In this document: positions 38,294-62,335 of the stretch, piece after piece
Layout of the letters: each line of letters begins with the position of its first letter
How positions within the stretch are numbered: position 1 is the first letter of the stretch
From: a virus
Taxonomy: Duplodnaviria; Caudoviricetes
Direction: 5' to 3' (one strand)
Length of the DNA stretch: 62,335 nucleotides
Virus record (IMG/VR): IMGVR_UViG_3300033521_000005
Span: 1 to 62,335 of that record
Notes under the pieces: generated by a model
The model's database searches: none
The model's input: only the letters and a program-made list of their open reading frames with translations
What the model was told of the DNA's origin: nothing
Translations under genes and position numbers: made by a program

Positions 38294-38950
38294 TTACTTC
38301 TGCCGTCTGTACGTCCGGTGCTCGATCATTACGCCGACCACATTGGCGCCGTCCTCGCTCCGAACCACCGGCCAGTCCGAGTTAATTGGGGCCAACTCAA
38401 ACAGCAACAGACCGTCCTGTTTCCCGCGTTCCCGATACTTGCGGAACGTGATTGCGCCGGAGTGAACTGCGCAAACGAAGTCACCGGGCTCTGGGAATAA
38501 GTCCGGGTCGATTACTACCTTGTCGCCAGCCGCGAATGCCGGGGCCATGCTCTCGCCCTCGAGCTCAATCGCAAAACATCTGGGCCTATGCAGCGCCTCT
38601 GTCATTAGTGCTCTCCCTACGGTGGCAGGCAACAAACCTGTTGCCGCAAATGCCAATGCCTGATCGCTAGACAAGAGCGGGATTCTGACTACAGACACCT
38701 CGATCCCGCTCACCTCAATACGCACTACCGGGTGGTACTTCCCTGCGCCGCCGTACTGCAACCACGACGGATTTACACCCAACGCCTCCGCGATCTTGGT
38801 TGTGTAGCGCGATGACTCCGCGCCGTTGTCAGAACAGATATAGCTAACCGTCTGTTGCTTTACCCCGACGGCACGGGCCAGAGCCGATTGACTCATGTTC
38901 CGTTCTTCCAAGACTTGGCGAATCCTCGCCCCAAGCGTTCCGTCTGGCAT
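38294..38950 (-). CDS. cI: cI-like repressor (Xre HTH plus S24-like domain)
   Basis: SQ..LA..VGVKQQTVS HTH; GESM.P.F..GD.V.IDP; sits between divergent operons. Confidence 0.88.
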   Translation of the reverse strand: MPDGTLGARIRQVLEERNMSQSALARAVGVKQQTVSYICSDNGAESSRYTTKIAEALGVNPSWLQYGGAGKYHPVVRIEVSGIEVSVVRIPLLSSDQALAFAATGLLPATVGRALMTEALHRPRCFAIELEGESMAPAFAAGDKVVIDPDLFPEPGDFVCAVHSGAITFRKYRERGKQDGLLLFELAPINSDWPVVRSEDGANVVGVMIEHRTYRRQK

Positions 38951-39195: not shown

Positions 39196-39918
39196 ATGTA
39201 CCACTACCCGTTTCACGTCCGTGATTACGTGGCGCGAACACGCCATTTATCACCAATGGAGGACTTGGCCTACCGCCGCCTCTTGGACACCTACTACACC
39301 GACGAAAAGCCGCTGCCGCCTGATACGCACCGCTGCGCACGGCTGATTGCTATGCCAGAGGCGTTCGACGCCGTCGATCTGGTGCTCAACGAATTTTTTG
39401 ATCTGCGCGAAGACGGCTGGCACAACGAGCGTTGTGACGAGGAGCTTGCGAAGTACCGCGCCATGTCCGATGGGGGGCGCAAAGGGGCTTCGATAAGGTG
39501 GGCGAAGGGGGGCGATAGCCACCCCAATGGCTCCCCTAATAAGGGGGCTACTAAGGGGGGCAATAACCCCCCCATCGACCCCCTAATAGCAACCAAGAAC
39601 CAAGAACCAAGAACCAAGAAACCCCCTGTAGTCCCCCAAGGGGACGACGAGCTCGGGTTTGCCGAGTTCTGGACTGCGTACCCACGCAAAGACGGCAGGG
39701 CCCCGGCATTGAAGTCGTGGCTCAAGATCAAGCCCGACGAATCCCTGCGTCAACGAATCATTGCAGCCGTCAAGGCTCGCGCCGTCACCAAGGAATGGAC
39801 AAAGGACAACGGCCAATTCATTCCGATGGCGACGACCTACCTGAATAACTCCCGATGGGAAGACGAGCTTGCCACCGCAGAGGCTGGCTTCTGGGCAGAG
39901 CAGGAGCCGTGGCAATGA
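39196..39918 (+). CDS. Replication initiator (YdaU/DUF1376 family)
   Basis: YYPFHV.DY...T.HL...E..AYRRLLD.YY; C-terminal F.EFW.AYPRK..TYLN..RW.D; internal iterons. Confidence 0.88.
   Translation: MYHYPFHVRDYVARTRHLSPMEDLAYRRLLDTYYTDEKPLPPDTHRCARLIAMPEAFDAVDLVLNEFFDLREDGWHNERCDEELAKYRAMSDGGRKGASIRWAKGGDSHPNGSPNKGATKGGNNPPIDPLIATKNQEPRTKKPPVVPQGDDELGFAEFWTAYPRKDGRAPALKSWLKIKPDESLRQRIIAAVKARAVTKEWTKDNGQFIPMATTYLNNSRWEDELATAEAGFWAEQEPWQ
39466..39630 (+). repeat. Putative replication origin inside initiator gene (G/C-run iterons plus (AACCAAG)x4)
   Basis: AT-N-(G/C run) units at ~11-12 bp period, then AACCAAG x4 at 39591-39618; lambdoid arrangement. Confidence 0.7.
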
Positions 39919-42865: not shown

Positions 42866-43379
42866 GCGCGTCTCCTCCGGTCGCACATCCCGTTGCTCTG
42901 TCGATGGATGCAACCGGGTTCCCGGCATGTTCGGGGCTTGCAGCGAGCACCAGCACATCCCCATCGAGATCGAGTTCAACGCGGCGGTCGCGCGAGGGGC
43001 GGCGCCAACAGACCGGCCACCCTGTTTCTCAAGCCATGAGCTCTGGCAGGAATACGTGGCCTGCTGGGCGCTCAAAGAGCGGATCACGGCCCGCTACTCA
43101 AAGCACGTTGAATTCTGTCGTGACTGTTCGCCGAAGTACCGGGACTCAATGCAGCGAGAGGGCCGCTGCACCCACCACGAAACCATCTTCGTGAGGAAAC
43201 AGACTGGCGAGGTCGAGGGCGTGTCCTCGCATTTTGTGTCACGATGGGAGAGCGCCCTGCTGGGTCTGCATGGAGAGGTCGTGTCCATGCCGAGCCATGA
43301 GGTCGTTGCCAGAACAGAGGAGCGTATTGCAGCAGCAAGAGCGCCCAAGAAAATGGGTCGCCCTAGAAAGGCAGTTTGA
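42855..43379 (+). CDS. Cys-rich hypothetical protein
   Basis: Several CxxC-type motifs; in operon. Confidence 0.55.
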   Translation: MTFKRVSSGRTSRCSVDGCNRVPGMFGACSEHQHIPIEIEFNAAVARGAAPTDRPPCFSSHELWQEYVACWALKERITARYSKHVEFCRDCSPKYRDSMQREGRCTHHETIFVRKQTGEVEGVSSHFVSRWESALLGLHGEVVSMPSHEVVARTEERIAAARAPKKMGRPRKAV

Positions 43380-43786
43380 TGTTGGAGTTTTTTGTACCCG
43401 GCGAGCCCCACGGGAAAGGGCGCCCTCGCGTGTCCACACGGGGCGGATTCAGCAGGATGTTCACGCCGCCCAAGACAGTGGCCTACGAGGCTGAGGTTGC
43501 GCACTGTGCGGCACGGGCAATGGATGGGGCAGACCCGCTAGACGGGCCTGTGGCGGTCGAAATTGAGGCGATCCACGGCATCCCCCAGTCGTGGTCGAAA
43601 AAGAAGCAGGCGGCGGCTGTTGGCGGCCCTGTGACGGCCAAGCCAGACATCGACAATCTCATCAAGTCGGTGGCCGATGGCGCAAATGGCGTGGCGTGGG
43701 TTGACGACAAACAGATTGCCAAGATCACAGCCCGGAAGATTTACGGCACGGAGCCGGGTGTGCGTGTGCGTGTGAGTGCAATGTGA
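43376..43786 (+). CDS. rusA: RusA-family Holliday junction resolvase
   Basis: GKGRPR; KPDIDN..K...D..NG....DD.QI. Confidence 0.88.
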   Translation: MMLEFFVPGEPHGKGRPRVSTRGGFSRMFTPPKTVAYEAEVAHCAARAMDGADPLDGPVAVEIEAIHGIPQSWSKKKQAAAVGGPVTAKPDIDNLIKSVADGANGVAWVDDKQIAKITARKIYGTEPGVRVRVSAM

Positions 43787-49293: not shown

Positions 49294-49691
49294 TTGTGGC
49301 TCCTCGTAAAGCTGATGAGCACATCGGCAAGCCCAAGCTGTGCCGAGGGGTGCAGGTAGGCTTCTGGAGTGCGCCAGAAGGGCGTTTTACCGGCAAGGAT
49401 GACCTCGCAGGTCAGCACCAGCAGGCCGACGACGTGCTGGACGCCATAGCCGTGCATTTGCAGCGGGTGGTCGGGCAGGTCAATGTCAGGAAAGATCGTC
49501 CGAAACATCGTGATGAACTGGGGCGTCTTTTTAAGACAGCGCCAGCTTTCTGGCCCGATCTGTTTGGCCCTGTTCATGGTGTCCATCGGGTCGATGGAAA
49601 CCACATCCGGGCGGTCGTTGATGATGTTCACATTGCCGTGGTGGCAAAGGATGTTGATGGGCGCCTCTAATGGCGTTTCGGACAGTTTCAT
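49290..49691 (-). CDS. Hypothetical protein with PE..LHP..Q motif
   Basis: ATG 49691; motif reminiscent of an ABC-ATPase D-loop fragment. Confidence 0.5.
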   Translation of the reverse strand: MKLSETPLEAPINILCHHGNVNIINDRPDVVSIDPMDTMNRAKQIGPESWRCLKKTPQFITMFRTIFPDIDLPDHPLQMHGYGVQHVVGLLVLTCEVILAGKTPFWRTPEAYLHPSAQLGLADVLISFTRSHK

Positions 49692-49852
49692 GCGGTCACC
49701 TTCCTTTCCTGAATCCAGTAGTGGCACAGCCTGTCTGGGTCGGACTGTTTCATGTGCCGAATGCAGGACTCGGCAACAGTCTTGTCGAAGAACAGTTCCT
49801 CGATCCACTTGTCGCGGCCATCGCTGGCCCAGAGCAAAAACACATACCTCAT
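49688..49852 (-). CDS. Hypothetical protein (54 aa; not in ORF track)
   Basis: RBS AAGGAG; MRYVFLLWASDGRDKW...; ATGA coupling on both sides. Confidence 0.55.
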   Translation of the reverse strand: MRYVFLLWASDGRDKWIEELFFDKTVAESCIRHMKQSDPDRLCHYWIQERKVTA

Positions 49853-50301
49853 GTGAGCTCCTTCATCAGTTGCTTGAACTCGAGGTAGGCCGCAAATTTC
49901 TCCGCCTCGGTCAGATCGGATGCCAGCTTGCGTTTCACGGGGGCTGGCACCTTGGGAGAATCTGTTGCAGCAGCAACAGGGGCCACCTTGGCTGCCTTTT
50001 TCTTGCTCCGGTCATAGGGGACACGCTCCTCGTATGCCAACGGGTTGGTCACGCTGTAACGCTTGAGCTTGTAGGTAATCCCCTTCATGCCGTGCTTGCG
50101 GCTTACATCGCTGTAAGCCTTGATTACCCCGCTCCCCTCCATTTCATTGAGAATGGCAGCGGGTCGGTAGGACAGCTTCAAAGCTGTCGTTATATCTTCC
50201 TGTGTCTTTTCTGGGTGGTCTTTCAGCCAGTGCCAGACTCGATAGCGCACACTGGGGAGTTTCACTCCAGCATCGGATAGTGCTTTGGTCATTGCGTTCA
50301 T
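49849..50301 (-). CDS. Winged-helix-like protein
   Basis: RBS GAGGAG; RVW.WLKDHP..T..I pattern. Confidence 0.55.
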   Translation of the reverse strand: MNAMTKALSDAGVKLPSVRYRVWHWLKDHPEKTQEDITTALKLSYRPAAILNEMEGSGVIKAYSDVSRKHGMKGITYKLKRYSVTNPLAYEERVPYDRSKKKAAKVAPVAAATDSPKVPAPVKRKLASDLTEAEKFAAYLEFKQLMKELT

Positions 50302-50367
50302 ACGCTCCTCACAATCAGGCAACAGCGCCCGGTAATGCCCTGACGGTCAGGGCATTGGCTGGTGCTG

Positions 50368-50589
50368 TTAGTGCTTGAACACGTCAAAGACGCCAACACG
50401 ATTGCCGTTTGCATCCATCAGGACGTGGGCTGTGTTGACCTTGAGCGGCACATAGCCAGCGGCAACAGATTCAGCCAGTTCTCGAAGGATGCGGGCCACT
50501 TCCGACTGGCATGTGCCGTCGTCTTCTGGGCTGCCGTACTCGGGGCCAAAGGCTGCGTTGTCTGTGCCCATCATTAGGTTGATTCGCAT
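50368..50589 (-). CDS. Hypothetical protein (73 aa)
   Basis: DNAAF..EVARIL..LA..D.NGN.VG motif; RBS AGGAG. Confidence 0.65.
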   Translation of the reverse strand: MRINLMMGTDNAAFGPEYGSPEDDGTCQSEVARILRELAESVAAGYVPLKVNTAHVLMDANGNRVGVFDVFKH

Positions 50590-50870
50590 TGCTGTTTCTC
50601 CTGTTCACGTTGATAAATCTGGTAGCGCATTTCCTCGGCAACGAGGATGAGTTTTGCCCTGGCGATCAGGGCCAACAGTCTGTTCATAGTCCAGCCTCAC
50701 GTAGTCTGTGCATGTATTCCTCGTAGCCGAACTCGCATTCGTCCGGGCTCATTGGAATCGGTTCACCAGTACGACAAAGGCCATGTATGGCAAAGGGGTG
50801 AACCCTTGTCGGTAGGCACTCAGTACGTGGGCCTGATATTGGTCGTGCATCTTCGTCCTCCTCGGTCTGT

Positions 50871-51119
50871 TTACTCATCATCGTCTTCGTAGTTGTCGGG
50901 GTCGTTGGGGTTTCGCGGGTCACCCTTGAACTTGAAGTCGATGTAGGGGAAAGCCTGTTCAAAGCAGGTCAACAGATTGTTGTAGTCGCCGCTCCGCATA
51001 TCGGTAAGCAGCTTGTCAATCTGGGCCTTCGGCCACTCCAGTTGCTTTGCCCATGTCGAAGCCAATCCCATCAGCACAATGGCGTTGCCCTGTGGGCCTC
51101 GCAGGTCAATCACTCGCAT
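50871..51119 (-). CDS. Hypothetical protein
   Basis: IDL.GP.GNA..LMG..M.SGDY..LL..F motif; RBS AAGGAG. Confidence 0.65.
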   Translation of the reverse strand: MRVIDLRGPQGNAIVLMGLASTWAKQLEWPKAQIDKLLTDMRSGDYNNLLTCFEQAFPYIDFKFKGDPRNPNDPDNYEDDDE

Positions 51120-51196
51120 GTCGTTTCTCCTTCGTAGCGAATAGTGCAAAGCGCACTGGTCAGAGCACTCCTTGGAGTGCCCTGCACCGCTGAGCT

Positions 51197-52069
51197 TTAC
51201 TCGGCAGGTTGGGGGTCGAGCTCTGCCATGACCTTGTCAATCCAAGCCTCGGCAGAGGCTTTGTTTTCCACGGGGTCTTGAACGATGGCGTTCTCGGGGA
51301 TGACGGGCAGCATCTTGGCGATCTGTGCCACTCCGTTGTGGGTGACAGTCCCCAGTCCGCCGTTTGCCCTACGGCCCATCAGGTCACATCCAAGGATAAT
51401 TCCGCCGAACAGAGCGGTGCGGAAGTAACCCGGCATCGCTGTAAGCGCCGCCAGTCTGTCCAAGTCCAAAGGCTGATCTTCAGCCTTGATTTCGACGAAC
51501 TGTGCAACGCTGGTGACCGAGCTCTCGCAGCTCTTGTGGCCTGACTCGAATCCGTAGATGGCTACGTTGTAGCCAGCTTCCATCAGAGCCGTGGTCAGCT
51601 TGAGGGCCGCAGCGCCCCGCCAGAACAGACTGTTTGCTCCGGTGTCGGAGTTGGCGCCGAGGTTGCAAAGGATTGCAACGGTGCGAACTCCAGAGCCAGA
51701 CCGGCGCCGAGTCCGAGTCCATGCTCGGCTCAGGTCGCCACGGTAAACGGCGTGGATGTCGAGCTCCGCTCCTTGGTCGGCCCGTTCCCGACGACGTCGA
51801 ATAGACGTCGGGTTGATTTCGCGGGTCGCCAGCTTCAACAGTCTGTCGGAACCGTCAGGCCAACCGTCTTTCAGACGGCGATTAAGCTCCTTGATGTTGG
51901 GAGCACCTAGCCAATGCTCACCGCTTTCGCCGTAGGCATTGGAAATAAACTTGTCGGCCCGATTGGCTTGGCCTTGATCTTTCCAAGTCTGTGACTTGGA
52001 CATTCCGTAGGGCTCCATCGTGGATTCCCAGAACATGGCAATTTGATTGCCATCAATTACGTGCAGCAT
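51197..52069 (-). CDS. vWA/CobT-like partner of AAA ATPase
   Basis: RBS TAGGAG before ATG 52069; G.ELDI......G..W then beta/alpha pattern; adjacent to the AAA gene. Confidence 0.55.
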   Translation of the reverse strand: MLHVIDGNQIAMFWESTMEPYGMSKSQTWKDQGQANRADKFISNAYGESGEHWLGAPNIKELNRRLKDGWPDGSDRLLKLATREINPTSIRRRRERADQGAELDIHAVYRGDLSRAWTRTRRRSGSGVRTVAILCNLGANSDTGANSLFWRGAAALKLTTALMEAGYNVAIYGFESGHKSCESSVTSVAQFVEIKAEDQPLDLDRLAALTAMPGYFRTALFGGIILGCDLMGRRANGGLGTVTHNGVAQIAKMLPVIPENAIVQDPVENKASAEAWIDKVMAELDPQPAE

Positions 52070-52152
52070 TGCAACTCCTAGCCAGTAGCGACACTGGCAA
52101 AGCCTCATCAGTACGGGAGCAACCCGCAGACCCCCCGAAGGGGGTTTCGGCA

Positions 52153-53289
52153 TCAGGCCACGTCAACCTTGGCCCTGTCTTCGTCTTTCCAGTCGAGGAA
52201 GAACTTGTTCTTCACTCGGCTGAAGTCCGCTCCGGCTTTCAGCAACTTCGTTGCATCGAGCAGGAATCGGGTGGACATCACCCGCTGCATCTTCAGTTCG
52301 GAAATACGTTTCCGAACAGCCCAGCCCCAAGCCAACAGATCGGGGGCAACGGCTTTGCGTTCAAAGCTGGTGTCGTAGTTCACGAAGTGACGACCGGCAC
52401 GGAACCGATCAAGAAAGGCTTCGTCAAGCCTTTCCCGTCCGGCATAAGCTGCCGAGGCACCGTTGCCGAAGGTGTTGGCACAAGCAATGCAGATGAAATC
52501 TGCATGGCGGGTCACCTTGCTGTTGCCACGGCGTTGCGGCAGGAAGAACGAGCCGTTAGCCAGAGCCTGATTGATGAACAGCAGGGTGTTGGGGTCAGCC
52601 GCATCGACTTCGTCGAACAGGAAGACGCCGCCGTTTTCGTAGAGCCTGACGAAGTCCGACTCAACGTAGTTGAAAGCGCCGCCGTCAGTTGGCAACAGCC
52701 AACCGGACAGAACAGATTCCGACATTCCTGCTGTGCAGGAAACCGACGCAAACTCGCGGCCCAGAGCTTCAGCCACTTGGTGAGCCAAGTGGGTTTTGCC
52801 GGAACCGGCAGGGCCTACCAACAGAATGTTGAGGCCGCATCCTGCATCGAGCAGGACGTCCTGAAATTCAGGACGAACGTGACCCGACGGTTTCCATTCG
52901 GAACCGTCAAGCCGCTTGACCTCGAATTTCATAACGGGAGACCGTTCAAGGGCAGCCTCCACTTCGTGGAGAACGATGGCCCGAACCTTGTCTTCGTTCA
53001 CTGCATTGCCAGCTAAGCTGGCAAACAGAGCGCCGATCTGGTTGGCAACAGCCGTCTGATCGACGTTGGGAGCCGACGGAGTCGGAGCGGGAGCCGATGG
53101 CATAGGAGCCGAAGGCTGGACATGCTCCATTGCAGAGCGGATGGCAGCCTCATCGTAAGCTCCAAGGAGCTTATCGACGCATTCGGTTTTCTTGGCTCGC
53201 TCATGGTCGAAACCGACCGAGCCGCTGTTCAAGAACTTGAACAGATCGAGGATGTATGCCTTTGGCATACCGAGTAGTTGGTCACGCAT
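52153..53289 (-). CDS. MoxR/CbbQ/CobS-type AAA+ ATPase
   Basis: GPAGSGKT, FLFDEVDAA, ANTFG.G, LD.A.LDRF. Confidence 0.9.
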   Translation of the reverse strand: MRDQLLGMPKAYILDLFKFLNSGSVGFDHERAKKTECVDKLLGAYDEAAIRSAMEHVQPSAPMPSAPAPTPSAPNVDQTAVANQIGALFASLAGNAVNEDKVRAIVLHEVEAALERSPVMKFEVKRLDGSEWKPSGHVRPEFQDVLLDAGCGLNILLVGPAGSGKTHLAHQVAEALGREFASVSCTAGMSESVLSGWLLPTDGGAFNYVESDFVRLYENGGVFLFDEVDAADPNTLLFINQALANGSFFLPQRRGNSKVTRHADFICIACANTFGNGASAAYAGRERLDEAFLDRFRAGRHFVNYDTSFERKAVAPDLLAWGWAVRKRISELKMQRVMSTRFLLDATKLLKAGADFSRVKNKFFLDWKDEDRAKVDVA

Positions 53290-53746
53290 TTGGTTTTCCT
53301 CCGGAAAGTGACAGTGGTTGAGAACGTCCAGACAAACCCCCTACGCTGCTAAAGCAGCGACGAAGCGGTGCCGTTGCAGCGAAAGGGGTTTGTGCTTGAC
53401 GCTCTGAAAGAGCGTTGTGTTAGGTGACGCCTCACGGCGTGGCCTGTGTGTATCTTGGTGGCGGAAGTTGTCCGCTCACCTCTCGGACACAGAGACGAAG
53501 TCTCTGAACCTTCCCTTCGGTTCGGGCTTAGAAACCCTAGTCAGCTTTGCTGATGCCTCACGGCATGAATGCTGACTCCTCTGGAGTCCGACGCTACCTC
53601 GCCGTTAGGGCCGAACCGCTCGGTTCGATGCGTCACCGTCAGACTCTGCTTAGCCCCTTCTACGAAGGGCTTCACCTATCGGTCTCACGGTGCTTTAGCA
53701 CCTACTGGTCGGGAAGTTCAGCGTTACCGCCGAATCGACGTTTTCA

Positions 53747-53786
53747 ACTGTAATGGCTGGCTTGTCACTGTGTCAAGTCCCCTTGT
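53747..53786 (-). promoter_or_regulatory. Sigma70 promoter for early operon with operator-like site
   Basis: Minus strand TTGACA-18-TACAGT; TCAAGTCCCCTTGT at 53773-53786. Confidence 0.6.
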
Positions 53787-53964
53787 TTTCTGTGACGAAG
53801 TCACAGGAGGTTGTGATGCGAGGCGTGATGCGGTGCGCAACGCGAAGGAAGGCCGGGAAAAACCCCTGATCCCAAACAGTCCGGGCACAGCTTCGCTGTC
53901 ACATGCTGTTCAAAGGAGCTAGAGAGGAGAGATAAGTACCCTAAAGGGTAGGGAGTCATTCAGG

Positions 53965-53977
53965 CAAGTTATTGATT
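53965..53977 (-). promoter_or_regulatory. IHF consensus site
   Basis: AATCAATAACTTG matches WATCAR-N4-TTR. Confidence 0.6.
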
Positions 53978-54156
53978 CCAAAGGAATCAGCAGTACGGTG
54001 AATGGGAAATGTCACGACATTGCACACACCGCGTCACGCCACACGAAGTTTTGCCTTCGGCAACAGGTCAACAGACTGTTATTCCTAGCTGCCAAATCTG
54101 GCCTCTCTATCCCTTTGGGATAGCCCACACGACCCAGTTTTGTCACAGTCTGGAGC

Positions 54157-54169
54157 TAAGTTGTTGATT
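54157..54169 (-). promoter_or_regulatory. IHF consensus site
   Basis: AATCAACAACTTA matches WATCAR-N4-TTR. Confidence 0.6.
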
Positions 54170-54317
54170 CCTAAAGGAATCAGGCGGCTCAAATGCCCGC
54201 TGTGTGGCCCGTTGGGGGTGGGTGGCGGGGGTGGCGCGGGCCTAGCTGGGCGCGTGGCCGGGCGCGTGAGCCTCTACTGATGGGTATGCCTCGAACACCC
54301 AGTCCCACCTCTTAGTT

Positions 54318-54670
54318 ATAGGGGGGGTATAGGGGGGCCATTAGGGGGGCTAATGGGGGGGCATTAGGGTAGTGGGCGAAATTTTGCAGAAAACGTGGGA
54401 ATGGAGTGCTCCGAACACCTCCGTTGAGCTCCATTTGCTCAAAAAACAGGCAAATTTGAGCACTTCCGGCCTGACAGACAGACCTCACGCTGCTTAAAAA
54501 ATAGGCAGAAAGTGTCGAAAAACACGGGAAAACACCCCAAAACAGCCTTTTTCGATAGGGGGGCTATAGGGGGGCTATGGCCCCCCCAATAGGGGGGCCT
54601 ATGGGGGGGCGTATAGCAACCAAGAACCAAGAACCAAGAATACATAAATACCCCCTACCCCCTTGGGACG
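54318..54670 (+). repeat. Origin-like iteron arrays plus (AACCAAG)x3
   Basis: ATAGGGGGGCT-type units at 54318-54369 and 54555-54612; 28 bp identical to 39586-39613. Confidence 0.8.
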
Positions 54671-54935
54671 TTGGAAAACAGGCCGGGGGCAGGGTTGGAG
54701 TCCCGTCGGGTACAATTTTTTGCGAAAGTCCCACAACAGGGCTTGTGAAGTGCGGATCAGGGCATTACAGTCGCCCACAGCATGGATGCTCATCGGTCTG
54801 TGCAGCGTAGAGAAGCGCCCTCAAGCGGTGTGTGAGGCCAACTACCGCACCTGAAGGCCCTCATCCCTCCTCCTGTGGTGGGCTGATTCAGGCGTATCGG
54901 TTCCGCGTCAAGGGCCGTTGAACATTGAAAGTCGT

Positions 54936-55244
54936 ATGGCAACACGGAAGGTCGTCAAAAAGTCGGTGGATCAGGACATTGCGGAATACCGCGATAAGCG
55001 CCGCGCTGCCCACGGCGAATTGGTGCGCGAGTCGATCCAGACGACCCAACTGGTGAATCTGTTGCAGGACTTTGCCCTCGGCAAGTCCAAGGCAAAGATG
55101 ACCGCCATCCGGCTGAAGTCCATCGAAATGCTGCTCGACAAATCTGTGCCCGACCTTGCGTCAGTGAAGCACGATGTCGAAGTGCAGCACGTCACGTTCA
55201 ACATCAACACCGACTTTGTCGCGCCAAAGACGGTCGAGGCTTGA
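54936..55244 (+). CDS. terS: Terminase small subunit (putative)
   Basis: Overlaps terL; R..IQ...L...LQ..LL.K..PDL motif. Confidence 0.6.
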   Translation: MATRKVVKKSVDQDIAEYRDKRRAAHGELVRESIQTTQLVNLLQDFALGKSKAKMTAIRLKSIEMLLDKSVPDLASVKHDVEVQHVTFNINTDFVAPKTVEA

Positions 55245-56686
55245 TGCAGGACGACAACGCTCCCATCACGTACTACCCACCGGGGCCGGTGGCGGCAGCG
55301 TTCCATCGTTCTGAGAAATTTGTCCGCGTTTTGAAGGGGCCGGTCGGCTCCGGGAAATCGTCGTCGTGCTGCGTTGAGATCGTGAAGCACACGATGAAGC
55401 AGAAACCTTGGAAGGGCGTTCGCCGCGCCCGCTGGGGCGTGATCCGCGCGACCTACCCAAGCCTGAAGACCACGACGATCAAGACGTGGGAAGCGTGGTT
55501 TCCGGGGCACATAGCCCCGATCAAGTACGACACCCCAATCATCAGCCGGATGCGGATCAAGGACTGCGGCGACGGCTACGGGATGGACTTGGAAGTGATC
55601 TTCATTGCGATGGAGACCGCCCAAGACACCGACAAGCTGAGATCGCTCGAGCTCACCGGGGCGTGGATCAACGAAGGGTCGGAAGTGCCGAAGGAAGTCT
55701 TCGACATGGTGACCCAGCGCGTAGGCCGCTTCCCCCCGAAGCGCGAAGGCGGGCCCGTCCATCCCTGCGTCATCATGGACACCAACCCGCCGGATGACGA
55801 CTCGTACATCTACAAGTTCGACGAAGAACAGCCCGACGGGTTTGAGTTCTTCCACCAGCCCGGTGGTCTCATCAAGATTGTCGAAGGGGACAAGGCTCGC
55901 TACGAGCCAAACCCCGAAGCGGAGAACGCGCTCAATCTCCCGCAGGGCTACCAGTATTACTTCAACATGCTGGCGGGCAAGACAGACGACTGGATCAAGG
56001 TCTTCGTGCTTGGCGACTACGGCACCACTGCCGACGGCAAGCCGGTCTACCCCGAGTACAACGACAAGGTTCACGTCGCCGCCGAGGAGCTAAAGGTCAA
56101 CCCCGGCCTGCCGATCTACCTCGGCTGGGACTTCGGGCTCACGCCAAGCTGCATCATCGGACAGATTTCGGCCAAGGGCCAGTTGCTCATCCTCGAGGAA
56201 CTGGTGGCCGAGGATATGGGTATTCGCCAGTTTGCGACAGACGTCGTCAAGCCTGTGCTCCTCAACAAGTACCAGCGTAACAAGTTCATTTCGGTGGGCG
56301 ACCCCGCTGGCATGAACAGATCGCAGACAGACGAGCGAACCTGTTTTCAGGAACTGCTCGAGGCTGGGATTTCAACCGAGCCAGCCAATACCAACGACTT
56401 CATTCCGCGCCGTGAATCGGTGGCTTTCTACCTGAACCGCATGGCGTCAGGCGAGCCCGGATTCCTGATCTCGCCCAACTGCCGCACATTGCGCAAGGGC
56501 TTTATCGGTGGCTACCGCTACGAGCGGCTGAAGGTTGCTGGCGAACGCTACCGGGATCGCCCGGTGAAAGACAGATTCAGTCACCCGCACGACGGCCTTC
56601 AATACCTGTGTTTGAAAGCCCGCGACGGTGGCGTCAACACGCGGGCTCGCAAGGTCAGCAAAGCATCAAGTAAGGGTTGGGTGTAA
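55241..56686 (+). CDS. terL: Terminase large subunit
   Basis: GPVGSGKS Walker A, W.NE Walker B, DTNPP, GWDFG, DPAG, SH..D.LQY. Confidence 0.93.
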   Translation: MMQDDNAPITYYPPGPVAAAFHRSEKFVRVLKGPVGSGKSSSCCVEIVKHTMKQKPWKGVRRARWGVIRATYPSLKTTTIKTWEAWFPGHIAPIKYDTPIISRMRIKDCGDGYGMDLEVIFIAMETAQDTDKLRSLELTGAWINEGSEVPKEVFDMVTQRVGRFPPKREGGPVHPCVIMDTNPPDDDSYIYKFDEEQPDGFEFFHQPGGLIKIVEGDKARYEPNPEAENALNLPQGYQYYFNMLAGKTDDWIKVFVLGDYGTTADGKPVYPEYNDKVHVAAEELKVNPGLPIYLGWDFGLTPSCIIGQISAKGQLLILEELVAEDMGIRQFATDVVKPVLLNKYQRNKFISVGDPAGMNRSQTDERTCFQELLEAGISTEPANTNDFIPRRESVAFYLNRMASGEPGFLISPNCRTLRKGFIGGYRYERLKVAGERYRDRPVKDRFSHPHDGLQYLCLKARDGGVNTRARKVSKASSKGWV

Positions 56687-58681
56687 ATGGAACTCGCAAT
56701 CGCAAAGCCTTCTGCCGAGAAAGGCGACACTCAACTGAACCCACAGGACAACTCCGACCTGTTGGCGTCCGCAATTTCTCGCCACATCACCAACGCTTGG
56801 AGCCAAGCCAAGTACGCCAAGACACAGATCACAGAGCGTCTGTTGCGTTGCGAGCGCCAGCGGCGCGGTGAGTATGACCCCGAGCGGGCCGCACAGATCA
56901 AGGAGACCGGCGGCAGTGACATCTACATGATGCTCACGGACATCAAGTGCCGCGCTGCCAAGTCTTGGATCATCGACGTGATGTTCAATCAGGGTCAAAT
57001 CCCCTTTGACCTTGCGCCGTCCAAAGACCCTGAAATGCCTCCCGAGCTCAAGATGATGGTCATCGAGCACGTCCGCATGGAGGCCGAGGACTTCCTGTCT
57101 ACCGGCGCACAGATGCACCCCGACGCCTTCCGCGAGCGCATGGAAGAAGTCGAGGACATGATCCGCCTGCGCTTGCGCGAGGAGGCCAAGGAAACGGCCC
57201 AGCGCATGACCAACGTCATCAACGACCAAATGGAGCAAGGCGGGTTCCGCCGCGCCGCCCAAGAATTCGTTGACGACTTCGTGACCTACCCGACGGCCAT
57301 TATGAAAGGCCCGTCTGTTCGCAAGAAAAAGCGTCTGGCTTGGGGGGCGAACTTCCAGCCCGTCATCCTCAACGACTTCTCGCGCGACGTCGAGCGCGTC
57401 TCGCCTTACGACATCTTCCCGTCCGCCAACTCATCCGGCGTGGACGAGGGTTTCCTGATCCAGCGCCACCGCCTGACGCTCAAGGACGTCGAGAACCTGA
57501 AGGGCGTCCCCGGCTACAACGACAGCGAGATCGAGCAAGTGCTCATCCGCTATGGCCGCGACGGCTACCGCTACCAAGAGTACGGCGACATTGAGCAACA
57601 GAAGCTCAAGGGCCAAATGAACGGCAGCTACTGGACGAGCAACTTTATCGAAGCCCTCGAGTTTTGGGGCCCGGTGATGGGCGACATGCTCAAGGACTGG
57701 GGTGTACCCAACATCGACGCGAAAGCCGTCTACGAAGTCAACGCTTGGCAGATCGGCTCCTTCGTCATCAAGGTGGTGTTGAACCCAGACCCGCTTGGCC
57801 GCCGCCCCTACGAGATCGCATCGTGGAGCGACATTCCCGGCGCCTTCTGGGGTCAGGCCCTGCCTGAGACGATGGCCGACATTCAGGTCATGTGCAACGC
57901 CGCCGCGCGGTCGCTCGCCAACAACATGGGCATTGCCTCGGGCCCGCAGGTTGAGGTGACTGTTGACCGCCTGCCCGATGGCGAAGACGTCACGACCATG
58001 TACCCGTGGAAGCTGTGGCAGACCACGTCCGACAAGACCGGCGGCGGCCAGCCCGCCATCCGCTTCTTCCAGCCGGACATGAAAGCGTCCGAACTGATGG
58101 GCGTGTACCAGACGTTTGCCAAGCAGGCCGACGAGGTCACCGGTGTCCCGAACTACATCTACGGCTCCGGTCAGGCGTCCGGCGCTGGCCGCACAGCTTC
58201 TGGTCTGTCCATGCTCATGGACAACGCGGCCAAGGGCATCAAGTTGGCGATCACCCGGATCGACCATGTGGTGACGATGGTGGTGGATCGCTACTACGTC
58301 CACAACATGCTCTACAGCATGGACAACTTCATCAAGGGCGACATGAAGGTCGTGAGCAAGGGTGCTCTGGGCCTGATCGCCAAGGAAGCCATCCAGCAGC
58401 GCCGCAACGAATTCTTGCAGGCAGTCACCAACCCGGTGGATGTCAGCATCATCGGCCCAGAAGGCCGCAGCTACCTGCTGCGGGAAATGGCCGAGGGCCT
58501 GCAAATGGACACCGACAAAATCATTCCAGCCCCGGAAATGATCAAGTTCAAAGCCGAGCAAGCCGCCGTGCAACAGGCACAGCAACAGGCCCTTGGCATG
58601 GCTGGCGACCCCGCCGCCCAAGGAGCTATGCCGCCGCTTGCGGGCGCTGGCATGGCGCCTCCTGCCCAACCGGCAATGTAA
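56687..58681 (+). CDS. Portal protein
   Basis: 664 aa directly after terL; RVSP.D..P and RTASG.SML motifs. Confidence 0.85.
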   Translation: MELAIAKPSAEKGDTQLNPQDNSDLLASAISRHITNAWSQAKYAKTQITERLLRCERQRRGEYDPERAAQIKETGGSDIYMMLTDIKCRAAKSWIIDVMFNQGQIPFDLAPSKDPEMPPELKMMVIEHVRMEAEDFLSTGAQMHPDAFRERMEEVEDMIRLRLREEAKETAQRMTNVINDQMEQGGFRRAAQEFVDDFVTYPTAIMKGPSVRKKKRLAWGANFQPVILNDFSRDVERVSPYDIFPSANSSGVDEGFLIQRHRLTLKDVENLKGVPGYNDSEIEQVLIRYGRDGYRYQEYGDIEQQKLKGQMNGSYWTSNFIEALEFWGPVMGDMLKDWGVPNIDAKAVYEVNAWQIGSFVIKVVLNPDPLGRRPYEIASWSDIPGAFWGQALPETMADIQVMCNAAARSLANNMGIASGPQVEVTVDRLPDGEDVTTMYPWKLWQTTSDKTGGGQPAIRFFQPDMKASELMGVYQTFAKQADEVTGVPNYIYGSGQASGAGRTASGLSMLMDNAAKGIKLAITRIDHVVTMVVDRYYVHNMLYSMDNFIKGDMKVVSKGALGLIAKEAIQQRRNEFLQAVTNPVDVSIIGPEGRSYLLREMAEGLQMDTDKIIPAPEMIKFKAEQAAVQQAQQQALGMAGDPAAQGAMPPLAGAGMAPPAQPAM

Positions 58682-58690
58682 GGAAACAGA

Positions 58691-58924
58691 TTGCTTTCAA
58701 AACCAGACACCAAAGTTTTGAGTGCCCTTGCCTCACTGGCAGGGCACCCGAGCTTTGAGACCGTAAGAGGATGGCTCATAGAGAGCCTGAACGACCTATA
58801 CGTGAACGGCTCCCAAGCCAAGGACGATGTAATCGCCCGGTGGCATCAGGGGGCAGCGCAGGCCGTGAGGGAACTTCTCGACAAAGCTGAGTCAGCCCCT
58901 GAAGTCCTCCGCAAGTCGCGGTGA
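58691..58924 (+). CDS. Small helical protein between portal and scaffold
   Basis: RBS AAGGA; QG.AQ motif. Confidence 0.65.
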   Translation: MLSKPDTKVLSALASLAGHPSFETVRGWLIESLNDLYVNGSQAKDDVIARWHQGAAQAVRELLDKAESAPEVLRKSR

Positions 58925-59055
58925 GCCGAAAGGCTCATGCAGCATCCCGCTGCGAACGTGTCCCGGCACGGTAAACGGGAACCGCTGAACACCGAAAAGT
59001 AAGTAGTGAACACCGCGAGGCTCACATAGCGACCTGATCGGCTCACGGAGTATCA

Positions 59056-60012
59056 ATGTCATCTTTACCACGCAAAGTTATCGAAGCCGAAGCACTGGCC
59101 GAGAAGCTGCAACAAGAACTGCTGAATGGTCAGCAGCCCACCGAGTCCAAGCCCAGCGGGCAAGGCAACGGTCAGCAACAGTCCGACGGACAGACTGGGA
59201 ACCAGCCTGCGTCTGTTGAAACTGTTGACCCGAACGCCGCACCTGTCGGGCTGAGTCCGAACCCCAATGCCGATGACGGCTCCCAGTCCCAACCGGACAA
59301 CTGGGAACACCGCTTCAAGGTCTTGCAGGGCAAGTACAACTCGGAAGTTCCCCGCCTGTCGTCGGAGAACAAGGAACTGAAGGTAAGCCTCAAGTCCATC
59401 CAAGAACAACTGGATGACCTGAAGAATGCCAAGCCTGTCGAACCGCTGGTCAAACAGTCTGAGATCGACGAGTACGGAGAGGGCCTGATTGACGTTGCCC
59501 GCCGCATTGCCCGCGAGGAGCTTGCGACGAAGGACACGGAAATCCAGAAGCTCAAATCCAAGCTCGATTCGCTCGAGGGCGTGACGTCCAAGACGGTAGA
59601 AAAGGACTTCTATTCCTCGCTCGACGCGAAGGTGCCGGATTGGACAAAGCTCAACCAAGACAAGTCATTCCACAAATGGCTGGACGAGGTTGACGAGCTC
59701 ACTGGCTATCGACGCCAAGACATGCTCAGCCAAGCCGAACGGGACAAGGACGCCGACCGAGTCGCCAAGTTCTTTGCCGCGTTCAAGAAGACATCCCAAA
59801 CGCAGATGGAAACCACGTCCGCCGCGCTGGAAACCCAAGTGACACCGAGCTCGACGAAGACGCCGAACACGCCCCCTGCCAAGAAAATTTGGACTCGGGC
59901 CGAGATCAGCGACTTCTACCGCCGGGTGCGCACCGGGTTGGTCAGCGATGCAGATCAGGTAACCATCGAATCCGATATTCATGCGGCTACCGTCGAAGGA
60001 CGGATCAGATAG
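59056..60012 (+). CDS. Capsid scaffolding protein
   Basis: W..RFKVLQGKY..EVP coiled coil; C-terminal I..A..EGRI; precedes the capsid gene. Confidence 0.8.
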   Translation: MSSLPRKVIEAEALAEKLQQELLNGQQPTESKPSGQGNGQQQSDGQTGNQPASVETVDPNAAPVGLSPNPNADDGSQSQPDNWEHRFKVLQGKYNSEVPRLSSENKELKVSLKSIQEQLDDLKNAKPVEPLVKQSEIDEYGEGLIDVARRIAREELATKDTEIQKLKSKLDSLEGVTSKTVEKDFYSSLDAKVPDWTKLNQDKSFHKWLDEVDELTGYRRQDMLSQAERDKDADRVAKFFAAFKKTSQTQMETTSAALETQVTPSSTKTPNTPPAKKIWTRAEISDFYRRVRTGLVSDADQVTIESDIHAATVEGRIR

Positions 60013-60041
60013 TCGTTTAGTGACCCGAAAGGAAATTCAAT

Positions 60042-60983
60042 ATGTCAGTAGCAGTAACAACCGGCTATTACGGCGCCGGTACAACCGACCAGTACGCCGC
60101 AGCGGGCGCAGCCAAGTTCATCCCTGAAATTTGGTCTGGCAAGCTCCAAGCGAAATACTACAAGTCCACCGTTCTGGGTGAGATCACCAACAACGATTGG
60201 GAAGGCGAAATCAAGGGCCAAGGCGACAAGGTCAAGATTCGCTCCATTCCGACCATCACCATCCGCGACTACACCAAGGGTCTGAACCTGACCTCTGAAG
60301 TGCCGCAAAGCACCCCCTTGGAACTCCTGATCGACAAGGGCAAATACTTTGCCGTCGTTCTGGACGACGTGGACAAGGTGCAGGCCGACGTGGCGCTGAT
60401 GGATATGTTCACCAACGACGCATCCATGCAGATGAAGATCGCCATCGACAATTTGGTGCTCGACGGCGTGAAGGCATCTATGGCTGCTGCCAACTTGGGT
60501 GCAACCGCTGGCGCGATCTCTGCCAACCTGAACTTGGGCACCGACGCGGCTCCTCGCGCCTGTTCCAAGACCACCATTCTGGACATCATTCTGGACATGG
60601 GTCAGGCGCTGGACGAACAGAACGTGCCAGAGACTGGCCGCTGGCTGGTGATCCCGGCTTGGATGGCCGCGATGATCAAGGCTTCTGATCTGAAGCAAGC
60701 CTACTTGACTGGTGACAGCGTCTCCCCGCTGCGCAACGGCAAGATCGGCATGATCGACCGCTTCCAGGTCTACATCAGCAACAACCTGCCCAAGACTGTC
60801 GATAATGACAGCTACGTCATGGCTGGTACGCGCGATGCGATCTCCTTCGCCTCGCAAATGACCAACGTGGAAACCCTGCGCTCTCAGTCCACCTTCGGCA
60901 ACATCGTCCGTGGTCTGAATGTGTTTGGCTACCAAGTGACGAAGCCCGAGGCTCTGACTCGCGCTATCGTGGTTAAGGCTTAA
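60042..60983 (+). CDS. Major capsid protein
   Basis: FIPEIWS.KL; N.D.EGEI...GD.V.I; G.IG.IDRF; F...VRGL.V.G. Confidence 0.92.
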   Translation: MSVAVTTGYYGAGTTDQYAAAGAAKFIPEIWSGKLQAKYYKSTVLGEITNNDWEGEIKGQGDKVKIRSIPTITIRDYTKGLNLTSEVPQSTPLELLIDKGKYFAVVLDDVDKVQADVALMDMFTNDASMQMKIAIDNLVLDGVKASMAAANLGATAGAISANLNLGTDAAPRACSKTTILDIILDMGQALDEQNVPETGRWLVIPAWMAAMIKASDLKQAYLTGDSVSPLRNGKIGMIDRFQVYISNNLPKTVDNDSYVMAGTRDAISFASQMTNVETLRSQSTFGNIVRGLNVFGYQVTKPEALTRAIVVKA

Positions 60984-60999
60984 TCAGCCTGAGTGAAAT

Positions 61000-61028
61000 T
61001 GGTCGGGGCTACGGCCCCGGCCATTTCT
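61000..61028 (+). terminator. Terminator-like hairpin after capsid gene
   Basis: TGGTCGGGGC-TACG-GCCCCGGCCA-TTTCT. Confidence 0.6.
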
Positions 61029-61041
61029 AAGGAAATACCCC

Positions 61042-61353
61042 ATGAAGTTGATGCGCCGCAAACGCGATGGGCGGGTTGCTGTATTTGACGCCCGGATTGT
61101 TGCCGACGGAGATTGGGAGCTCTTTGAAGAAGCCCCAGCACCACAGCCCGAGCCTCCTGCGCCCGAGCCAAAGCCTGAGCCCGCAAAGCCCAAGGCCCCA
61201 CAGATTCCCCGCTCTCTGCGCCCCGTGAAACCCTTGGTGCGCGAGACCGATCCAGAACAGGTCACCGCTCTGTTTGAGCCGCCTGTTATTCAAGAGACCC
61301 AGACTGCGAAAATGACCCCGGCTGATAAGGCCGAGGACGTACAGTCGGAGTAG
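61042..61353 (+). CDS. Pro-rich hypothetical protein
   Basis: RBS TAAGGA; in the head operon. Confidence 0.6.
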   Translation: MKLMRRKRDGRVAVFDARIVADGDWELFEEAPAPQPEPPAPEPKPEPAKPKAPQIPRSLRPVKPLVRETDPEQVTALFEPPVIQETQTAKMTPADKAEDVQSE

Positions 61354-61364
61354 TGAGGTAACCC

Positions 61365-62054
61365 ATGCTTGCAAGTGAAATCATTGACCGCGCCCGCGTT
61401 GTTTTGAATGACGCCGACGGTGTGCGCTGGCTGGATGCAGAGTTTTTCAAGTGGATCAACGATGCTCAGCGCGTGATTGCACTTGTCCGCCCGGACTCTG
61501 TTGTCTCCAACACATCCATCACGCTGGTGCTTGGCACCAAGCAGACTCTGCCTGCTGACAGCCTGCGTCTGTTGGACGTGGTGCGGAACCTGACCTCCAC
61601 CGGTGCCGGTGGCCGCGCGGTACGCCATGTGGATCGTGACGTTCTGGACACCCAGAATCCTGACTGGCACGGCGACACCCCGGCTGCCACGATCAAGAAC
61701 TTCGTCTACGACAACCGCGACCCCAAAACCTTCTACGTGTACCCGCCCTCGCAGGCCGGTGCCAAGCTCGAGGTCATCTACTCCAAGAACCCAACAGACG
61801 TCTCGGCTCTGGGCTCGAGTCTGGCCGTGGCCGACATCTACGCCGACCCGCTGCTGAACTACGTTCTGTACCGGGCCTATTCCAAGGACGCTGAGTTTGC
61901 GCAAAACGCCCAGTTGTCTGGAGCCTACCTTGGCGCCTTCAACTCCATGTTGGGCATCAAGACCTCCAAGGACGCGGCCTACTCCCCAGACCTGCACAGC
62001 AAGGGCCGCACAACGGCCCCCAATGCCGCAGCCCTCCAAATGGGTAGTGTCTAA
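61365..62054 (+). CDS. Head-tail adaptor protein (DUF6682-like)
   Basis: L.D....RW......WIND.Q......RPD; FYVYPP; Y.LYRAYSKD.E. Confidence 0.75.
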   Translation: MLASEIIDRARVVLNDADGVRWLDAEFFKWINDAQRVIALVRPDSVVSNTSITLVLGTKQTLPADSLRLLDVVRNLTSTGAGGRAVRHVDRDVLDTQNPDWHGDTPAATIKNFVYDNRDPKTFYVYPPSQAGAKLEVIYSKNPTDVSALGSSLAVADIYADPLLNYVLYRAYSKDAEFAQNAQLSGAYLGAFNSMLGIKTSKDAAYSPDLHSKGRTTAPNAAALQMGSV

Positions 62055-62056
62055 GC

Positions 62057-62335
62057 ATGGCCTCCTACGACGACTTCCTCCCTTACGTCCTCACGGATGT
62101 GCCGGGGTGCGCCGAAATCGTCGCCATCCAAGCCATCCGCAACACCGCCATCGACTTCTGCGAGAAGTCCTTGGTGGTGGAGGCTGACCTTGACCCGGTC
62201 AGTCTTGTCGCTGGCGCGGCTGATTACGACTTGGAGCCTCCGACCGCAACTTTGGTGACGAAGGTCATCCGTCTGTTCTACAAGAACCGGGAGCTCAAGC
62301 CGGTTGCCCGCGACGACATTGCCTCCGCGACGTTC
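62057..62335 (+). CDS. Head-completion/adaptor protein, 5' part (continues into 1..510)
   Basis: ATG 62057, open to the window end and in frame with 1..510. Confidence 0.75.
   Translation, partial: MASYDDFLPYVLTDVPGCAEIVAIQAIRNTAIDFCEKSLVVEADLDPVSLVAGAADYDLEPPTATLVTKVIRLFYKNRELKPVARDDIASATF
62195..62335. repeat. Terminal direct repeat, right copy
   Basis: Matches 1-141 with one mismatch. Confidence 0.95.

Follow-up and report, generated by a model that had tools for sequence, protein, structure and literature searches.

The virus record IMGVR_UViG_3300033521_000005 (hereafter the window, the whole stretch of 62335 nt that was analysed) is a complete or near-complete genome of a temperate tailed phage with a GC content of 58%. 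It carries a dense array of perfect DNA mini-hairpins in a 1.6-kb gap that has a leftward operon on one side and the terminase genes on the other. An earlier note on this DNA had described the array as an element of 53332-54182 at a presumed genome end. We found that what had been reported is the non-coding front part of a polar domain that extends from about 54182 down to about 49400, and that most of this domain is protein-coding. Hairpin density, not the position of individual hairpins, is what relatives have conserved, so that it is a bulk property that is kept. The parts of the domain and its two largest genes are listed here.

51197..54182, no strand: domain core, about 22 hairpins per kb, covering the non-coding region and the ATPase and VWA-like genes.
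49400..51196, no strand: domain tail, about 8-10 hairpins per kb, covering small genes of unknown function.
53332..54182, no strand: non-coding hairpin array, 20 perfect hairpins in 851 nt; the transcribed leader has 11 and the part upstream of the promoter 9.
52153..53289, minus strand: AAA_5 (MoxR/CobS/NorQ-like) ATPase gene, first gene of the leftward operon together with the DUF7192 gene.
51197..52153, minus strand: DUF7192 gene, fold weakly VWA/NorD-like.

Hairpins were defined as perfect Watson-Crick stems of at least 5 bp with loops of 3-5 nt. A scan with this definition recovers 19 of the 20 hairpin positions listed in the earlier note (53344, 53399, 53427, 53461, 53490, 53541, 53553, 53574, 53612, 53655, 53689, 53790, 53887, 53937, 53973, 54008, 54051, 54107 and 54165), bearing out its count of about 20. 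The one left out, 54070, is a palindrome with a 1-nt centre and misses the loop criterion, and an additional overlapping hairpin at 53939 brings the total within 53332-54182 to 20. The excess over chance is large: 200 dinucleotide shuffles of the same region gave 2.5 ± 1.7 hairpins (maximum 8), and for stems of at least 7 bp the count is 6 versus 0.2. When folded as single-stranded DNA (ssDNA), the two strands of 53332-54182 have equal energies (-162.7 and -161.7 kcal/mol) with z-scores of -5.2 (plus strand) and -6.5 (minus strand), and none of 20 shuffles was as good. Among the 20 hairpins, loops are 3 nt long in 10 and 4 nt long in 8, the closing pair is 5'C..G3' in 16, and several hairpins are nested within longer stems (I1 at 53332-53393, I5 and I7). 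Sites resembling intrinsic terminators (a GC-rich stem followed by a T run) number 3, versus 2.1 ± 1.3 in shuffles.

The hairpins are not confined to the non-coding interval, contrary to the original description. Coding sequence is just as dense as far as about 51.2 kb, and from there to about 49.4 kb the density is intermediate: per 500 nt there are 11-12 hairpins at 52.0-54.0 kb, 8 near 51.5 kb, between 4 and 7 as far as 49.5 kb and about 2 elsewhere. The region 49400-54200 as a whole contains 80 hairpins versus 14.7 ± 4.0 in shuffles (28 versus 0.9 for stems of at least 7 bp), while positions 1-49000, with 183 versus 162, show no enrichment. The leftward operon itself continues for another 5 kb without hairpins. 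Within the domain, hairpins occur about once per 50-60 nt and take up 27-31% of the bases.

We compared the genes with shuffles of their synonymous codons. The ATPase gene has 26 hairpins versus 4.2 expected and the DUF7192 gene 15 versus 2.9. The same holds for the ATPase gene in all seven lineages analysed in this way (16-27 hairpins versus 3.5-6.9 expected, 200 shuffles each). As these counts lie far above the synonymous-shuffle expectation, we conclude that the genic hairpins are written by synonymous codon choice. Control genes (integrase, helicase, internal virion protein and capsid) show no enrichment over such shuffles, and the portal gene (15 versus 9.4) stays inside the shuffle range. 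On the terminase side of the window there is a mild excess in the gene for the large terminase subunit (TerL; 11 versus 3.5), and 54201-62335 has 54 hairpins versus 25.6, partly owing to overlapping G-rich repeats. We nevertheless treat the domain as one-sided, since relatives show background levels on that side.

Only one promoter-like site is present in the gap (53776-53747), and it is conserved in the subclade of the window.

53747..53776, minus strand: sigma-70-like promoter (TTGACA, 18-nt spacer, TACAGT), directed left to the ATPase gene.
53290..53745, minus strand: leader of about 450 nt, with a highly conserved core of about 190 nt (53545-53745) made up of nested inverted repeats.

As had been noticed earlier, hairpins flank this promoter on both sides. 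Since 9 of the 20 lie upstream of it, one transcript from the promoter cannot cover them all. The position of the hairpin just upstream of the -35 box (53790-53806) is conserved among relatives, and its sequence is variable. The upstream part also contains two near-identical 7+7 palindromes (53973-53989 and 54165-54182, TGATTCC-(T)AAA-GGAATCA), which are 192 nt apart and have similar flanks; in the corresponding two positions, relatives carry other palindromes whose CTTA-type centre is conserved. It is possible that the two are operator sites upstream of the leftward promoter.

Loops and closing pairs identify the type of hairpin. Six lineages together have 481 domain hairpins. Of these, 212 have a 3-nt loop, against a flat background, and 75 of the 212 triloops are GAA/TTC. 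The 5'C..G3' closing pair is found in 311 of 505 domain hairpins compared with 54 of 183 in the background, and the most enriched 7-mers are CCTTCGG/CCGAAGG and GCGAAGC. These counts fit the stable d(C-GNA-G) class of mini-hairpins, in agreement with the earlier note. This class is described as exceptionally stable, poorly bound by single-strand-binding protein (SSB) and resistant to exonucleases, with examples at the G4 origin, in RSF1010 ssiA (CCGAAGG) and in N4 promoters (PMC13037366). The purine-rich loop falls on either strand, as was originally stated (25 sense-strand C(GAA)G versus 29 C(TTC)G), and other GNA loops are equally symmetric.

The hairpins also show no tolerance of G:U pairs. 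Just outside each stem, G:U-type pairs (73 of 424) and A:C-type pairs (87 of 424) occur at chance level, so that stems end sharply. Orthologous sites with a single bad pair, counted in codon alignments of the ATPase and DUF7192 genes from 12 lineages, are of G:U type in 42 cases, of A:C type in 50 and of another type in 97. The consensus folds of the conserved leader are equal in the sense and antisense directions (-44.8 versus -44.3 kcal/mol; 8 and 6 sequences). An RNA explanation is therefore disfavoured, because G:U tolerance and a restriction to one strand would be expected of it and neither is seen. Together with the hairpins on both sides of the promoter, loop symmetry and the lack of G:U tolerance uphold the proposal of a structure-coded element at the DNA level that is not the product of one transcript. 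Rfam has no match at gathering score anywhere in the window; at E<=1 over 53200-54700 there is a single match to a microRNA model (E=0.1, 23.9 bits versus a gathering score of 90). No oriented k-mers are enriched apart from the hairpin centres. Chi-type protection was considered and rejected: GCTGGTGG occurs 8 times versus 4.1 expected, and none of the occurrences is in the domain.

Relatives were collected by their ATPase from viral, metagenome and genome collections and, separately, by TerL (80 loci fetched, of which the 39 with more than about 1.3 kb of upstream sequence were examined). Hairpin density is the same in 8 lineages with an ATPase at least 63% identical at the protein level, and the domain is absent from relatives with an ATPase at most 47% identical. 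In the TerL-based set it is present in all 9 assessable loci with TerL at least 71% identical and absent from all 26 with TerL at most 61% identical; in the remaining 4 (72-73% identical) the upstream sequence is too short to judge. Each of the 12 aligned lineages has 16-27 hairpins in the ATPase gene, and thus the dense domain is kept across the clade. The domain always accompanies the divergently placed module of ATPase and VWA-like genes, and being always found together, domain and module are inseparable by distribution.

The right-hand boundary coincides with a conserved box.

54200..54290, no strand: conserved GC-rich box, consisting of the reverse complement of AGAGGCTCAnGCGCC at 54261-54275 and a G-rich tract at 54213-54245; the domain begins here.

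In all five lineages where the AGAGGCTCAnGCGCC box was found, the domain starts abruptly at it, with 1-6 hairpins per 500 nt before the box and 7-14 after. Density then decays over 3-6 kb and has reached background by about 5-6 kb from the box, whichever small genes occupy that stretch. The G-rich tract within the box has runs of 3-5 G on the plus strand; a G-quadruplex could arise there, as could an R-loop in the event of rightward transcription.

Comparison of lineages reveals a turnover of individual hairpins. Between lineages that are 67-75% identical in nucleotide sequence, most sites do not persist (two or more bad pairs in 12-18 of 23-27), and despite this loss each lineage retains its 16-27 hairpins in the ATPase gene. 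From L007 to L008, 12 of 21 hairpins are intact versus about 2.2 expected under a null matched for codon position. Compensatory double changes exceed slid-partner controls (223 of 730 column pairs versus 132-167, and 238 of 591 versus 124-157). At one site, CTCCAC-GAA-GTGGAG in one lineage corresponds to GTTGAC-GAA-GTCAAC in another; the hairpin just upstream of the -35 box is a second clear case. Turnover at constant density is hard to square with roles tied to particular sites (for example promoters, defined priming sites or one given RNA fold) and favours either a bulk property or a steady mutational input.

We next compare the domain with known systems. The closest resemblance in geometry is to the early promoters of phage N4, which have stems of 5-7 bp, 3-nt GNA loops and C:G closing pairs, act at the DNA level and, as a further likeness, sit in an early-acting region (PMC4496689, PMC13037366). 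The precedent of N4 for extrusion of such small hairpins holds, as its hairpins extrude in vivo and at supercoiling no stronger than the physiological level, with a superhelical density of -0.035 (PMC4496689). N4 has three promoters that share sequence and a single orientation and are served by an injected polymerase of 3500 aa, whereas here there are about 80 hairpins with unrelated stems, facing either strand, mostly genic and with no polymerase match found. The shared -17 to +1 sequence in one orientation is thus missing from the array, where stems are unrelated and loops point both ways. The statement of the earlier note that no N4-type virion RNA polymerase is visible stands: neither Pfam, PDB sequences nor the names of homologues give an RNA-polymerase match for the giant 2514-aa protein of this phage, of which the first 1650 residues were not fold-searched. 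In the same hairpin scan the N4 left end has 9-11 hairpins per kb, and GAA/TTC makes up 2 of its 39 triloops.

The single-strand initiation (ssi) signals of RSF1010 (ssiA and ssiB) and the G4 origin likewise share an SSB-resistant core with the array, CCGAAGG being found in ssiA and GCGAAAGC in G4, and the RSF1010 mini-hairpin adjoins iterons, as the array does (PMC13037366). A mini-hairpin core beside iterons is therefore common to both, but ssi signals are one or two defined sites with a cognate primase, whereas the array is dense, has about 80 sites that shift in position and comes with no recognised primase among the genes of the window. The injection stop or first-step-transfer region of T5 is annotated in its record as rich in palindromes and repeats and as linked with DNA entry. 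This non-coding region of about 1 kb is located inside a terminal repeat of a 38% GC genome, and it has 9-10 hairpins per kb with no triloop or GAA bias; the domain is at least twice as dense, mostly coding and part of a 58% GC genome, and long contigs show neither a terminal repeat nor a unique end at the site. In numbers, the same scan finds 7-10 hairpins per kb in the T5 region and 1-5 at the lambda right end, again with no triloop or GAA bias. Finally, the hairpins sensed by OLD and Lamassu at the lambda origin are ssDNA hairpins beside Rep-bound iterons; the lambda iterons are themselves palindromic, and here a separate kilobase-long array adjoins the iterons (bioRxiv 10.64898/2026.07.10.737580). 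In each comparison, be it with N4 promoters, ssi signals, the stop region of T5, structured RNAs or terminators, the array lacks features that define the known element. The mini-hairpin unit itself is familiar, but an arrangement of about 20 of them per kb that extends for kilobases, is mostly genic and is conserved in density seems to be without a published description, and full-text literature within the collection searched describes no kilobase-long hairpin array inside phage genes.

Next to the GC box lie repeats that recur at a second locus.

54319..54640, no strand: iteron-like repeats, with TAGGGGGG clusters at 54319-54364 and 54556-54612 around an A/T-rich stretch and (AACCAAG)n at 54610-54640.
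39500..39625, no strand: matching repeat cluster in the rep gene, with G6 words, AACCAAG heptamers and an identical 28-nt stretch.

The two repeat sets are 15 kb apart, one inside the initiator gene and the other beside the terminase genes. Repeat words are common to the gap next to the putative small terminase gene (terS) and the rep locus in all four lineages examined, the window's being one of them. The other three each have their own repeat word, and one of these three has its main word 1.1 kb upstream of the rep gene. Because the words recur at the rep locus, the gap repeats look like Rep iterons, not (or not only) terminase sites, and judging by these sequence matches the gap would hold an iteron-type replication element. 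Two-site replication elements are known, as in the P4 ori and crr pair, which the two repeat sets recall. An origin-type context is thus as likely as a genome end for the site beside the array.

The earlier note had taken the site to be the first-injected genome end, and the contigs do not bear this out: the clade's long contigs are permuted relative to the site, and contig starts are scattered. None of five long contigs (50-62 kb) ends there, and the one with end repeats can be read as a circular assembly. Short contigs do tend to start in the gap, at scattered places over more than 1 kb, and the repeats common to the gap and the rep gene could break assemblies by themselves. The position of the GC box and repeats, just upstream of terS and terL, is that of a lambda-like cos. 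Relatives of TerL include Mx8, which we take to be a headful packager. Two contigs of one species from different records (L050 and L054) begin at exactly one base, which lies 115 nt before the orf108 homologue, and a third contig reads through that base (L053:5934); the common start may be a real end in the subclade or a repeat-driven assembly break.

How can this domain be explained? The reading we favour, at somewhat short of an even chance, is a polar domain of 3-5 kb made of d(C-GNA-G)-type DNA mini-hairpins that are able to extrude or to resist SSB. In negatively supercoiled duplex the repeats would form small cruciforms, as the N4 promoter hairpins of the same class do; if the duplex were unwound, hairpins would form on both strands and resist melting by SSB and attack by single-strand nucleases. 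Formation as cruciforms or on two strands is suggested by the strand symmetry of the hairpins, and cruciform formation is physically plausible because N4 hairpins of like size and loop extrude at the superhelical density cited above. Since the domain starts at the GC box beside the iterons and terminase genes, we infer a process that begins at this hub and runs leftward. Its setting might be origin-proximal unwinding or priming, or else, should the hub double as the packaging end, the entry or protection of a DNA end; within the favoured reading we give the two about equal weight. A more specific proposal, which we put forward with less confidence though as a realistic possibility, is that the clade uses non-coding DNA together with the synonymous leeway in its genes to encode a bulk structural zone of 3-5 kb with about 20 extrudable, SSB-resistant hairpins per kb, placed where replication repeats adjoin the packaging genes, with selection acting on density alone. 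Such a zone might serve as a store for supercoils or unwound DNA, as a single-strand zone that excludes SSB and nucleases, or as an entry ratchet.

Several points weigh against this reading. That the hairpins form in vivo, that selection rather than mutation bias maintains them, and what they do are all things we infer; the symmetric, Watson-Crick-only pattern could also be obtained from mutation bias, and the present data cannot separate selection from templated mutation bias. The copy of the repeats in the rep gene is not flanked by dense hairpins (39-40 kb has 4 per 500 nt), and so an iteron site does not by itself call for a hairpin domain, while for the alternative setting the evidence leans against a physical genome end at the GC box. 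Hairpin spacing is only slightly more regular than random placement (coefficient of variation 0.37-0.62, pooled 0.55, versus 0.65 ± 0.08). The RusA-like resolvase encoded by the phage could cut extruded cruciforms. The array is also likely to carry a cost, because ssDNA hairpins at origins trigger OLD and Lamassu and are substrates of SbcCD, as reported in bioRxiv 10.64898/2026.07.10.737580. Regular tiling of the hairpins was considered separately and dropped, as the spacing is too near random placement to decide.

The main rival, which we consider unlikely yet the strongest of the alternatives, is a mutational footprint. According to this explanation, polar unwinding or end resection from the GC box often leaves the stretch in single-stranded form, and template switching within quasi-palindromes creates and perfects short inverted repeats about the loops of greatest stability, with purifying selection on the proteins limiting changes to synonymous sites. 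Quasi-palindrome correction of this kind produces inverted repeats that are perfect and have Watson-Crick pairs only, and the changes it makes look like compensatory ones. Much of what we observed would follow: stems that are perfect and end sharply without wobble extension on either strand, complete strand symmetry, quick turnover of hairpins at constant density, gradual decay of density with distance, and compensatory double changes, which are the expected product of arm-to-arm templated correction. Against this, quasi-palindrome correction is known as a single-site mutation hotspot, not as a conserved kilobase domain, and an at least five-fold excess in all 12 lineages despite coding constraint needs a very high local rate. 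Retention above the codon-position-matched null (12 of 21 versus about 2.2 from L007 to L008) and cases where a hairpin is kept while its stem sequence is fully replaced, such as the one just upstream of the -35 box, also speak for more than mutation, and the polar single-strand process anchored at the GC box would still have to be explained. Improbable, and more so than the footprint, is a specific version of the original idea, a last-packaged, first-ejected cos-type end, at which the hairpins would act as an obstacle to exonucleases or RecBCD, as an entry ratchet or pause, or as a platform for an ejected protein. In a lambda-like cos phage the last-packaged end lies on the side of terS/terL away from the terminase genes, where the domain is found; the domain starts within about 35 nt of the conserved GC-rich tract, several short contigs start in or near the tract (two of one species at the same base), and the way density grades away from a single point suits an end effect. 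Also in favour are the 2514-aa polyvalent protein of virion type that the phage encodes and the case of N4, in which the first 500 bp enter and then become supercoiled (PMC4496689). These points are offset by the behaviour of the contigs (none of the five long ones ends there, one is read as circular from its end repeats, and starts scatter over more than 1 kb near rep-shared repeats that would themselves break assemblies), by the kinship of TerL with Mx8, presumably a headful packager, and by the same scan having found nothing comparable at T5 (7-10 per kb), N4 (9-11 per kb) or the lambda right end (1-5 per kb).

The remaining explanations are less probable still. An RNA-level role, in which a structured leader and the 5' part of the leftward early mRNA shield the transcript from Rho, RNases and R-loops, would suit the conserved promoter pointing into the domain, the 11 of 20 reported hairpins in the 450-nt leader, the nested, covarying and RNA-like stems of the leader core and the drop in density with distance from the promoter. 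We think it quite unlikely, however, as about 500 nt upstream of the promoter are just as dense (7-11 hairpins in the first 500 nt after the GC box in five lineages), G:U pairs are not preferred (42 versus 50), GAA and UUC loops are equally common, unlike what RNA energetics predicts, the sense and antisense consensus folds are equal (-44.8 and -44.3 kcal/mol), no Rfam family matches and the operon continues 5 kb further without hairpins. Evasion of immunity, whereby fragments from a RecBCD zone would self-fold and so serve poorly as CRISPR prespacers or Argonaute guides, could account for polarity over a few kb from one point and for the indifference to strand, since spacer acquisition is polar from injected ends. 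Yet no oriented Chi-like word is enriched, the evidence on a genome end at the site leans against one, and a type III-A system prefers spacers from DNA hairpins (PMC8860593); we therefore hold this explanation to be very improbable. The least credible of all is an array of N4-type hairpin promoters or protein-binding palindromes. Its stem and loop geometry is that of N4 promoters (PMC4496689 and PMC13037366), and the near-identical palindromes at 53973-53989 and 54165-54182 are possible operators, but the sequence itself largely refutes it: stems are unrelated, loops face either strand, about 80 copies lie inside genes, and the giant protein, with its first 1650 residues not fold-searched, gives no RNA-polymerase-like match.

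What the domain means depends on how it is maintained. If selection maintains it, protein-coding DNA would carry a second, structural code over kilobases, with the DNA hairpin of highest known stability as its unit. Phage biology would gain a new kind of cis-acting DNA-structure element, one that overlaps protein-coding sequence, and also a natural test bed for the question whether small cruciforms or single-strand hairpins form and act in vivo. If the domain was made by mutation, it would be a rare genomic footprint showing which part of a phage genome is habitually single-stranded, and in what direction. Either way, synonymous sites in such regions are not neutral, and the sequence is an unusual one for assemblers and gene finders. 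The domain also bears on recent work on defence systems that sense hairpins at origins.

The wider gene context is that of a temperate phage. Tail and internal virion protein genes, including the one for the 2514-aa LPD38 polyvalent protein, occupy 1-32 kb, and a chain of leftward minus-strand genes runs from about 53.3 kb down to about 44.3 kb. Other features relevant to the argument are the following.

24534-32078, plus strand: giant 2514-aa open reading frame, whose sole Pfam match is LPD38 (large polyvalent protein domain).
32320-33375, minus strand: integrase.
38294-38950, minus strand: CI-type repressor.
39196-39918: replication initiator (rep) gene; a DnaB-like helicase gene comes next.
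43376-43786, plus strand: RusA-like Holliday-junction resolvase gene.
54918..56686, plus strand: orf108 and large terminase (TerL), with transcription pointing away from the hairpin domain.
55241-56686, plus strand: TerL, with portal and capsid genes downstream.

The product of orf108 is possibly the small terminase subunit, encoded by terS, and has no family match. The predicted model of DUF7192, which is of modest quality (predicted local distance difference test score, pLDDT, 67), weakly resembles NorD and VWA domains (best E 2.7e-3). This likeness suggests that the AAA_5 ATPase and DUF7192 are a pair of the MoxR/NorQ-VWA type with no evident DNA role, and DUF7192 was rejected as a candidate hairpin-acting enzyme on the same grounds. 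A scan for tRNA and tmRNA genes found nothing in the window, and blastn of 53290-54970 against cultured phages returned no match. The public runs listed as containing the sequence, five of DNA type and none of RNA, are labelled wetland metagenome; the data placed on the sequence were low-depth assembled contigs from four of them. The giant 2514-aa protein, for which PDB holds no sequence match, is in all probability a multi-domain protein that is ejected. Its 174 homologues are 1.4-4.4 thousand aa long and have varied polyvalent-protein domains, and one of them is labelled Planctomycetota, a sequence label that hints at the host.

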